Assembly (NCBI GenBank): GCA_023379265.1
Contig: JAMCUI010000012.1
Span: forward strand, 27,936-91,935
DNA: 64,000 nt
From: Patescibacteria group bacterium
GTDB taxonomy: Bacteria > Patescibacteriota > Microgenomatia > 2-02-FULL-39-11
Direction: 5' to 3'
Shown: piece after piece, positions 20,508 through 22,408 of the stretch
How the letters are laid out: each line of letters begins with the position of its first letter
Position numbering within the stretch: position 1 is the first letter of the stretch
Position numbers and translations under genes: made by a program
Notes under the pieces: model-generated
Database searches by the model: none
The model's input: only the letters and a program-made list of their open reading frames with translations
Told to the model about the DNA's origin: nothing

Positions 20508-22295
20508 CTAACTTACCACTTCCCCTTCCTGGATATCTTCCTTCTTGTCTTTTTTATCCTTTTTCTCTTCCTTTTCCTCCTTGTTGTCTCCTGCCTGCTG
20601 CTGGGTTTGCTGGGACTGCTGCTGATACATCGCCTGCCCGATCTTCTGAAGGGAATCGGATAGATCTTTTGTCTTTGTCTCCAAATCTTCCTTGGTTCCC
20701 GTCTCCAGAATTGATTTTAATGCCGAAATTTTCTCATCAACTTCCTTTTTGACATCGGCGGCTACTTTATCGCCTGCATCTTTAAGCGACTTTTCAGCCA
20801 CATATATCATATTGTCTGCCTTGTTACGGGCCTCCACTTTGCCTTTTTTAGCCTCATCTTCTGCAGCATGGGCTTCAGCTTCCTTGGTCATTTTTTCAAT
20901 TTCGTCCTTTGAAAGCCCTGTGGAACCAGTAATTTTGATACTCTGACTCTTACCAGTTGCTTTATCTTTGGCTGAGACGCTCAATATACCGTTTGCATCA
21001 ATATCAAAAGTGACTTCTACCTGTGGGATACCGCGCGGCGCAGGAGGTATACCATCAAGTATAAATCGGCCCAATGATTTGTTATCAGCAGCCATGGGCC
21101 TCTCCCCTTGAAGGACATTTATTTCTACAGATGTCTGGTTGTCTGCGGCTGTTGAAAATACCTCTGTTTTTGATGTCGGCACAGTCGTATTTCTGGTTAT
21201 AAGAGGAGTCAGGACCCCTCCGTATGTCTCCACCCCCAGTGTCAGGGGCGTCACATCCAAAAGCACTACATCCCGCACTTCCCCTGTCAGTACACCTGCT
21301 TGTACTGCAGCACCAATAGCTACGACTTCATCTGGATTGACAGTACGGTTGGGATCTTTACCGAAATACTCCTTTACTTTCTCAATGACCTTAGGCATTC
21401 TGGTCATTCCGCCAACCAAGACAATTTCATCAATCTTGTCTTTTGTTATCTTGGCATCCTTAAGACAAGCTTCAACCGGACCGATTGTATTATCAATCAA
21501 ATCGCCAACTATTGATTCCAGTTTGGCTCGGGTCAACTTGTGCACGAGGTGTAAAGGTCCCTCCTTTCCCTGGGTTATAAACGGCAAGTTTATCTCTGTT
21601 TCCAGACTGCTTGAAAGCTCTATTTTTGCTTTCTCAGCTGCGTCACGCAAACGTTGAAGTGCCTGAGGATCTTTTCTCAAATCTACATTGTTTTCTTTCT
21701 TGAATTCATCAGCCAGATATTCAAGGATTTTCTTATCAAAATCGTCTCCTCCCAGGTGAGTATCCCCGTTGGTAGCCTTGACTTCATAAACACCTTCACC
21801 CAATTCCAGAACCGATATATCAAAAGTGCCTCCACCAAGATCGTAAACCGCCACAGTATGGGCATGTTTTTTGTCCAAACCGTAAGCAAGTGCAGCAGCT
21901 GTGGGCTCATTTAGAATTCTCTTTACTGTCAGACCAGCGATTTCCCCCGCCTGTTTGGTAGCTTGCCTTTGCGAATCATCAAAATATGCTGGAACCGTAA
22001 TGACCGCTTCACTCACTTTTTCGCCTATATGGTTTTCCGCGTCTGTCTTTATCTTTTGCAGAATCATGGCTGAGATTTCCTGAGGAGTAAAAGTTTTACC
22101 CTCAACCTCGACAACAGCCATTCCTTCACGGCCACTTTTTATCGCATACGGAAGCCATTTGATGTCATACTGGACTGACTTATCTGAAAATTTGCGACCC
22201 ATCAATCTTTTCACTGAAAAGATTGTCGATTTGGGGTTTATCACCATCTGGCGTTTAGCCACATCACCGACTATCCTTTTTATGGGATCAACCAC
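20508..22295 (-). CDS. dnaK: Chaperone DnaK (Hsp70) main body. As assembled, the N-terminal ~45 codons are separated by an 88-bp tandem duplication.
   Basis: DLGGGTFD and IDANGIL motifs and a C-terminal EEVD-like acidic tail. The ORF begins inside the ATPase domain at ...[17 protein letters not shown]. Confidence 0.9.
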
Positions 22296-22408
22296 GGAAG
22301 GAATGACATTCCTCCCTTCAGGGGTTTATCACCATCTGGCGTTTAGCCACATCACCGACTATCCTTTTTATGGGATCAACCACGGAAGGAATGACATTCC
22401 TCCCTTCA
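22233..22408. repeat. Perfect 88-bp tandem direct duplication (22233-22320 and 22321-22408) inside dnaK.
   Basis: Identical units ggggtttatcaccatctggcgtttagccacatcaccgac...cctcccttca. 88 is not a multiple of 3. Confidence 0.9.

Follow-up and report, generated by a model that had tools for sequence, protein, structure and literature searches.

Does this member of the Patescibacteria lack an intact dnaK gene, or was the gene broken only when its genome was put together from metagenomic reads? The question is raised by a perfect tandem duplication of 88 nt that lies inside dnaK in the window (the whole stretch of DNA that was analysed, 64,000 nt long) and shifts the reading frame of this chaperone gene. 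To answer it we examined the structure of the damaged gene, its counterparts in other assemblies and the bases at the edges of the duplication. Coordinates are those of the window unless another locus is named.

In the window, dnaK occupies positions 20508-22497 of the minus strand. Its ATG is at 22497, with the sequence AGGAGG 5 nt upstream, and translation from this codon gives 59 aa (22318-22497) followed by a TGA, which is the first codon past the junction of the two copies. The remainder of the gene forms a separate ORF of 595 aa (20508-22295), because the length of the repeated unit is not a multiple of three (88 mod 3 = 1). One copy lies at 22321-22408 and, in the native frame, encodes approximately residues 31-59 of DnaK. 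The other, at 22233-22320, is the second to be met by the dnaK mRNA and holds the premature TGA (22320-22318). The copies are 100% identical and directly adjacent, with no N between them, and their junction reads …CCCTTCA|GGGGTTTATC…. Identity at period 88 spans 89 nt, so that the register of the duplication is ambiguous by 1 nt. A perfect repeat of 88 nt cannot have originated by chance (4^-88).

Deletion of one copy yields an ORF of 633 aa that codes for a full-length Hsp70. The preliminary description of this DNA had reported two identical adjacent copies, a TGA at their junction when the gene is read from its true start with a good SD, and an uninterrupted Hsp70 after removal of one copy; all of these observations were reproduced. 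At the level of domains, the single-copy allele of locus L013 (6125-8026, 633 aa) matches the Pfam HSP70 profile (PF00012) over positions 1-599 with 851 bits (E = 4e-256), whereas the 595-aa ORF of the window matches positions 43-599 only and lacks positions 1-42. The phosphate-1 loop (DLGTTNS) is located in the 59-aa fragment, and the frameshift separates it from the 595-aa ORF as deposited; once one copy is removed, the loop joins the remainder of the ATPase domain without interruption. Outside the duplication we detected no further lesions in dnaK, the rest of which is identical to intact alleles.

The neighbouring genes hrcA (23078-23809), grpE (22550-23059) and dnaJ (19421-20323) lie on the same minus strand as dnaK and are intact, as had been stated earlier. 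An identical GrpE protein occurs in 4-5 independent contigs. The gene order hrcA-grpE-dnaK-dnaJ is borne out by the ORFs and by the Pfam labels assigned to the called genes. Thus, in its standard gene order, in the length of the restored gene (633 aa, profile positions 1-599) and in its DLGTTNS loop, the locus resembles the canonical bacterial operon and the canonical Hsp70, and it differs from them in that the gene is split by the 88-bp duplication and the long ORF is without profile positions 1-42.

How does dnaK look in other assemblies of the same population? Contigs of this Patescibacteria (Microgenomates-like) population were retrieved together with their neighbouring genes by exact-protein look-ups, in which the GrpE protein of the window served as the query for the independent contigs. 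They came from the Logan assemblies of SRR10278331, SRR10252151, SRR10267473 and SRR10244963 and from the NCBI MAG GCA_023487465.1 (JAMDBJ010000019.1). All four contigs that cover dnaK (SRR10278331, SRR10252151, SRR10267473 and JAMDBJ010000019.1), in assemblies which may derive from sequencing runs other than those of the source MAG, call an HSP70 protein of 633 aa, the same length as that of the restored gene. The 88-nt unit is present once in the DNA of each of them (L001, L012, L013 and L014). The same is seen at a larger distance: in 80 relatives DnaK aligns without interruption. The nearest GTDB species representatives belong to Candidatus Gottesmanbacteria and other Microgenomates (Patescibacteria); their DnaK proteins are at most 86% identical and align over residues 1-633 unbroken. 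An exact 39-mer scan for the 88-nt unit in GTDB genomes and JGI metagenomes gave no match, and the 595-aa, 59-aa and 124-aa products (the last of these from the second locus described next) had no exact match in the gene-position index.

A scan of the whole window for repeats revealed one more perfect tandem duplication, with two units of 80 nt (61606-61685 and 61686-61765) on the minus strand. It falls in a gene for a hypothetical protein of 291 aa (61070-62025) and, not being a multiple of three either, splits it into an ORF of 124 aa (61651-62025) and one of 193 aa (61070-61651), both of which contain the peptide MLVGVTGALALQNAD. The junction reads …TTGCCGCC|TATCGGCA…, and here too the copies abut without any N. 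The SRR10278331 contig (L004) has one 80-nt unit and a gene of 291 aa, and the NCBI MAG and additional Logan contigs have a second allele of the 291-aa protein (P0002; three further contigs in all). The 291-aa gene has no match in Pfam. By eye, its stretch GVTGALALQNAD(R/M)DDDIDF resembles the G-S/T…D-x-D motif of nucleotidyltransferases, and an R/M polymorphism between the strains falls within this stretch.

The edges of the two duplications proved to be the most informative. One copy of each was removed and all loci were re-aligned. After this the window was 100% identical to the SRR10278331 contigs over approximately 44 kb (5621-28621, 30985-40316 and 52050-64000), two bases excepted. These sole differing bases, 22233 and 61605, each directly adjoin the low-coordinate side of a duplication (for dnaK, in the register 22234-22321 / 22322-22409). 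At 22233 the window has G and SRR10278331 has T, a synonymous difference (Pro, CCC/CCA), and the G is the allele of strain 2, represented by the NCBI MAG, SRR10267473 and SRR10252151 (L001/L012/L014). At 61605 the window has A (Met, ATG) and SRR10278331 has C (Arg, AGG, protein P0001), and the strain-2 protein P0002 likewise has Met at this codon. At a distance of 224 nt, where the strains differ next (Pro/Ser), the window has the SRR10278331 allele, as it does at all remaining strain SNPs. Judged from these alignments, the window is of the SRR10278331 strain throughout, except for two foreign alleles, each of which precedes a doubled stretch of 88 or 80 nt. The density of strain SNPs is 8.6e-4 per site, i.e., the strains are ~0.09% apart, and the probability that SNPs adjoin both duplications by chance is ~1e-6 to 3e-6.

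What could produce a variant base followed by a doubling of the next N nucleotides at both sites? This combination points to an error in a graph or overlap join. In a metagenome with two strains ~0.09% apart, a strain SNP at position p would branch the assembly graph, and the shared sequence would resume beyond the branch at p+1. A piece that carries the minor or other-strain allele at p and reaches N nt further may then have been concatenated to the shared piece starting at p+1. If the overlap of N nt was left untrimmed, the product would show the foreign allele at p and then p+1 to p+N twice. Such a failure would have occurred twice in the window, once in dnaK (N = 88) and once in the 291-aa gene (N = 80), and a strain variant, that is, an ambiguity of the graph, is indeed found exactly at both sites (22233 and 61605), where the other strain's allele is carried. 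We therefore share the view of the preliminary description that a local assembly error is involved: the single copy in four assemblies, the second frame-breaking duplication and the boundary SNPs with the other strain's allele all support it. Taken together, these comparisons indicate that the 88-bp duplication is very probably a local artefact of the deposited MAG and that the real dnaK is an ordinary intact gene of 633 aa.

The behaviour of contigs from short k-mers agrees with this. Both duplication sites are crossed without a break by the Logan contigs of SRR10278331 (k=31), whereas a loop in the graph should interrupt contigs at such points; the same contigs do end inside other short repeats of the window (28621 and 30985). 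The junction k-mers must thus be absent or rare in that run. Across the ~790 kb of other loci that were fetched, perfect tandem duplications with a period of at least 30 nt were found twice, compared with two in the 64-kb window. Among unrelated loci the only one is a 76-nt perfect two-copy tandem duplication in the Dehalococcoidales MAG contig JAAXQM010000089.1 (L086, 6167-6318), possibly a further case of misassembly in a MAG.

Chen et al. (2020, Genome Res, PMC7111523) describe local assembly errors of MAGs, among them duplicated overlaps at joins, and report 13 errors in one CPR genome of 1.13 Mb. Two errors per 64 kb are of the same order and, measured against that example, not unusual. 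The cases described there are similar to ours in that a flank is duplicated at a join and protein genes are broken in a public CPR MAG. They differ in two respects: in the scaffold-join type, as that paper presents it, Ns stand between the duplicated flanks, whereas the copies in the window abut directly; and each error in the window goes together with a strain SNP at its outer boundary, a feature which does not appear among the error descriptions of that paper considered here. Our literature searches for a published description of duplication artefacts linked to SNPs found none. The direct contact of the copies, with no Ns, and the lengths of 88 and 80 nt, which fit no single k-mer size, are points against an artefact. 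An overlap of fixed k-mer length was considered as a source and rejected, the two lengths being unequal and both even.

The window contains several other repeats and strain differences, three of them at gene ends. At 28588-28725, at the 3′ end of pilN and between pilN and pilO, the terminal 62 nt of pilN, stop codon included, recur with one mismatch beyond an unrelated spacer of 14 nt. The NCBI MAG and two other-strain Logan assemblies have a single copy, and the two genes are 7 nt apart in them. In the strain of SRR10278331 the repeat seems to be real, since the Logan contig of that run terminates within it (28621). No source of the spacer exists nearby, and so this is no simple tandem duplication. 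At 30900-31018 the last 54 nt and the stop codon of a 475-aa fn3/Big_13 protein (C-terminal GGGAALLLAGIKLFTSL) belong to a repeat with a period of 65 nt, present in two copies with one mismatch in the window versus three perfect copies in the other-strain NCBI MAG (L008, 4407-4590). This difference is either a copy-number polymorphism or an assembly uncertainty. At the convergent ends of murJ and the GH39 gene (25815-25868) the other strain has 73 additional nt (L001, 3120-3245; also L012 and L014). There the GH39 gene closes with a variant 3′ end that has 5 differences in 45 nt; behind it come a spacer of 28 nt and a remnant copy that equals the 3′ end in the window. Since three independent assemblies show it, this additional sequence is real. 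The pilN, fn3/Big_13 and GH39 cases suggest a recurrent process that duplicates or replaces the 3′ ends of genes in this lineage.

Three further regions deserve mention. The segment 40459-41863 is unalignable to the other-strain NCBI MAG and is a strain-specific replacement region, with genes for 323 and 307 aa here and for 408 and 295 aa there. Within a FemAB-like gene (35381-36409), 13 strain SNPs are concentrated in ~780 nt (35372-36148), compared with ~1 per 1.2 kb elsewhere; the cluster could be a recombination tract or reflect a fast-evolving gene. Finally, an 835-aa ORF (3312-5819, minus strand) contains in-frame repeats of 45 nt at 5512-5730, in four copies of 60-100% identity, two of them nearly perfect. 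They are identical in the NCBI MAG, which shows the repeat protein to be genuine rather than a product of misassembly.

If the duplication in dnaK were real, then we can ask: How could it have arisen, and what would it imply? As in the alternative named by the preliminary description, it might be a very recent event, confined to a subpopulation or dominant in the sample of the MAG, which created a null or hypomorphic dnaK that is easily reverted by recombination and has not yet been purged. The copies are perfect, and any real event must accordingly have been very recent. Strain-differing repeats of 65-76 bp are genuine in this lineage, being present in independent assemblies or causing contig breaks, which shows that short duplications at gene ends arise naturally and speaks against an artefact. 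Moreover, dnaK nulls are viable in some bacteria. For this last reason the statement of the preliminary description that inactivation of dnaK is implausible is somewhat strong when taken alone, and in our judgement the case rests on comparative evidence and not on the essentiality of dnaK. That evidence makes a real recent duplication unlikely: it is absent from the four independent assemblies, and it would require two independent frame-breaking events in a genome which is otherwise the same as SRR10278331 over 44 kb. A real biological duplication predicts neither the position of the SNPs nor the foreign allele, and it leaves unexplained why an other-strain SNP flanks both sites on the same side and to the base. 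In being head-to-tail, perfect and shorter than 100 bp, the duplications resemble those caused by replication slippage. However, slippage uses microhomology or direct repeats, and the microhomology at both junctions in the window is 1 nt only, the level expected by chance. Slippage between the imperfect repeats GGGGTTTATCAC / GCGGAATTTATCAC, into which the TRF call extends, was also considered and rejected: the junction is outside them, and they are spaced by 90 nt instead of 88. The imperfect TTTATCAC repeats near the dnaK junction are likewise 90 nt apart and not at the junction. A variant of the real-event explanation would account for the flanking alleles. Both duplications might belong to a rare haplotype that incorporated short donor fragments of the co-occurring strain through illegitimate recombination or template switching, e.g., after natural transformation; the window includes the type IV pilus genes pilN and pilO. 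We regard this as very unlikely. Were it true, a donor SNP at one end with an adjacent tandem duplication of 80-88 bp would be a mutational trace left in CPR bacteria by the uptake of DNA from another strain, and it might also explain the real repeats of 65-76 bp at the 3′ ends of genes.

Two other explanations take the deposited sequence at face value and differ in the fate they assign to the protein. In one of them a programmed +1 frameshift rescues the gene and gives a full-length DnaK with an internal duplication of 29 aa. The motif CCC_UGA, known to be prone to +1 shifts, occurs in the mRNA at the junction (…AUA AAC CCC UGA AGG GAG G…), and a +1 shift after CCC (22318-22326, minus strand) would restore the DnaK frame, as at the prfB-type site. 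Unlike that site, the one in the window has neither an SD-like stimulator upstream nor conservation and exists only through the duplication; none of the same-species assemblies and none of the 80 relatives has this arrangement. A duplication of 29 aa in the nucleotide-binding domain would probably not fold, and the 80-bp duplication has no such rescue. The chance that this explanation is correct seems to us negligible, and the shift is irrelevant if the duplication is not real. The CCC codon itself exists only with the G of the other strain (22233/22321), and the SRR10278331 allele would give CCA. A -1 shift was rejected: the heptamer A_AAC_CCC is present, but shifting by -1 fails to restore the frame. 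In the other explanation dnaK is a genuine pseudogene in the reduced genome of a symbiont. CPR genomes are small, and the lack of a DnaK protein in the deposit of this genome would fit an annotation of the gene as a pseudogene. Against this, the gene is identical to the intact allele apart from the duplication, hrcA, grpE and dnaJ are intact, and conspecific genomes retain dnaK; a pseudogene is therefore highly improbable.

The public record was compared with these results. The 193-aa and 124-aa fragments are deposited at NCBI as MCL4339102.1 (M1271_05425) and MCL4339103.1 (M1271_05430), in the protein cluster of the 291-aa protein; both are encoded on a contig of 114,227 bp from a 'Patescibacteria group bacterium'. 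Because the fragments are present as NCBI proteins, the duplications were already in the public deposit and are not later introductions. The GrpE of the window carries accessions of both genomes (MCL4339063.1 and MCL5797934.1), and DnaK carries that of the other genome only (MCL5797933.1). Evidently, the MAG of the window has no DnaK protein record in the deposit.

If both duplications are assembly errors, as we consider very probable for the one in dnaK, then the two sites share a signature that can be recognized without reads: a perfect tandem duplication whose length is not divisible by three and which begins exactly one base after a strain-variable site with the allele of the other strain. 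This signature could flag the same class of errors in other MAGs. For the biology of the organism little would change, and the bacterium would have a normal dnaK. The public record of its MAG, in contrast, is without DnaK and lists one gene as two hypothetical proteins, and such errors propagate to protein databases, to completeness estimates and to inferences of gene loss in CPR bacteria.
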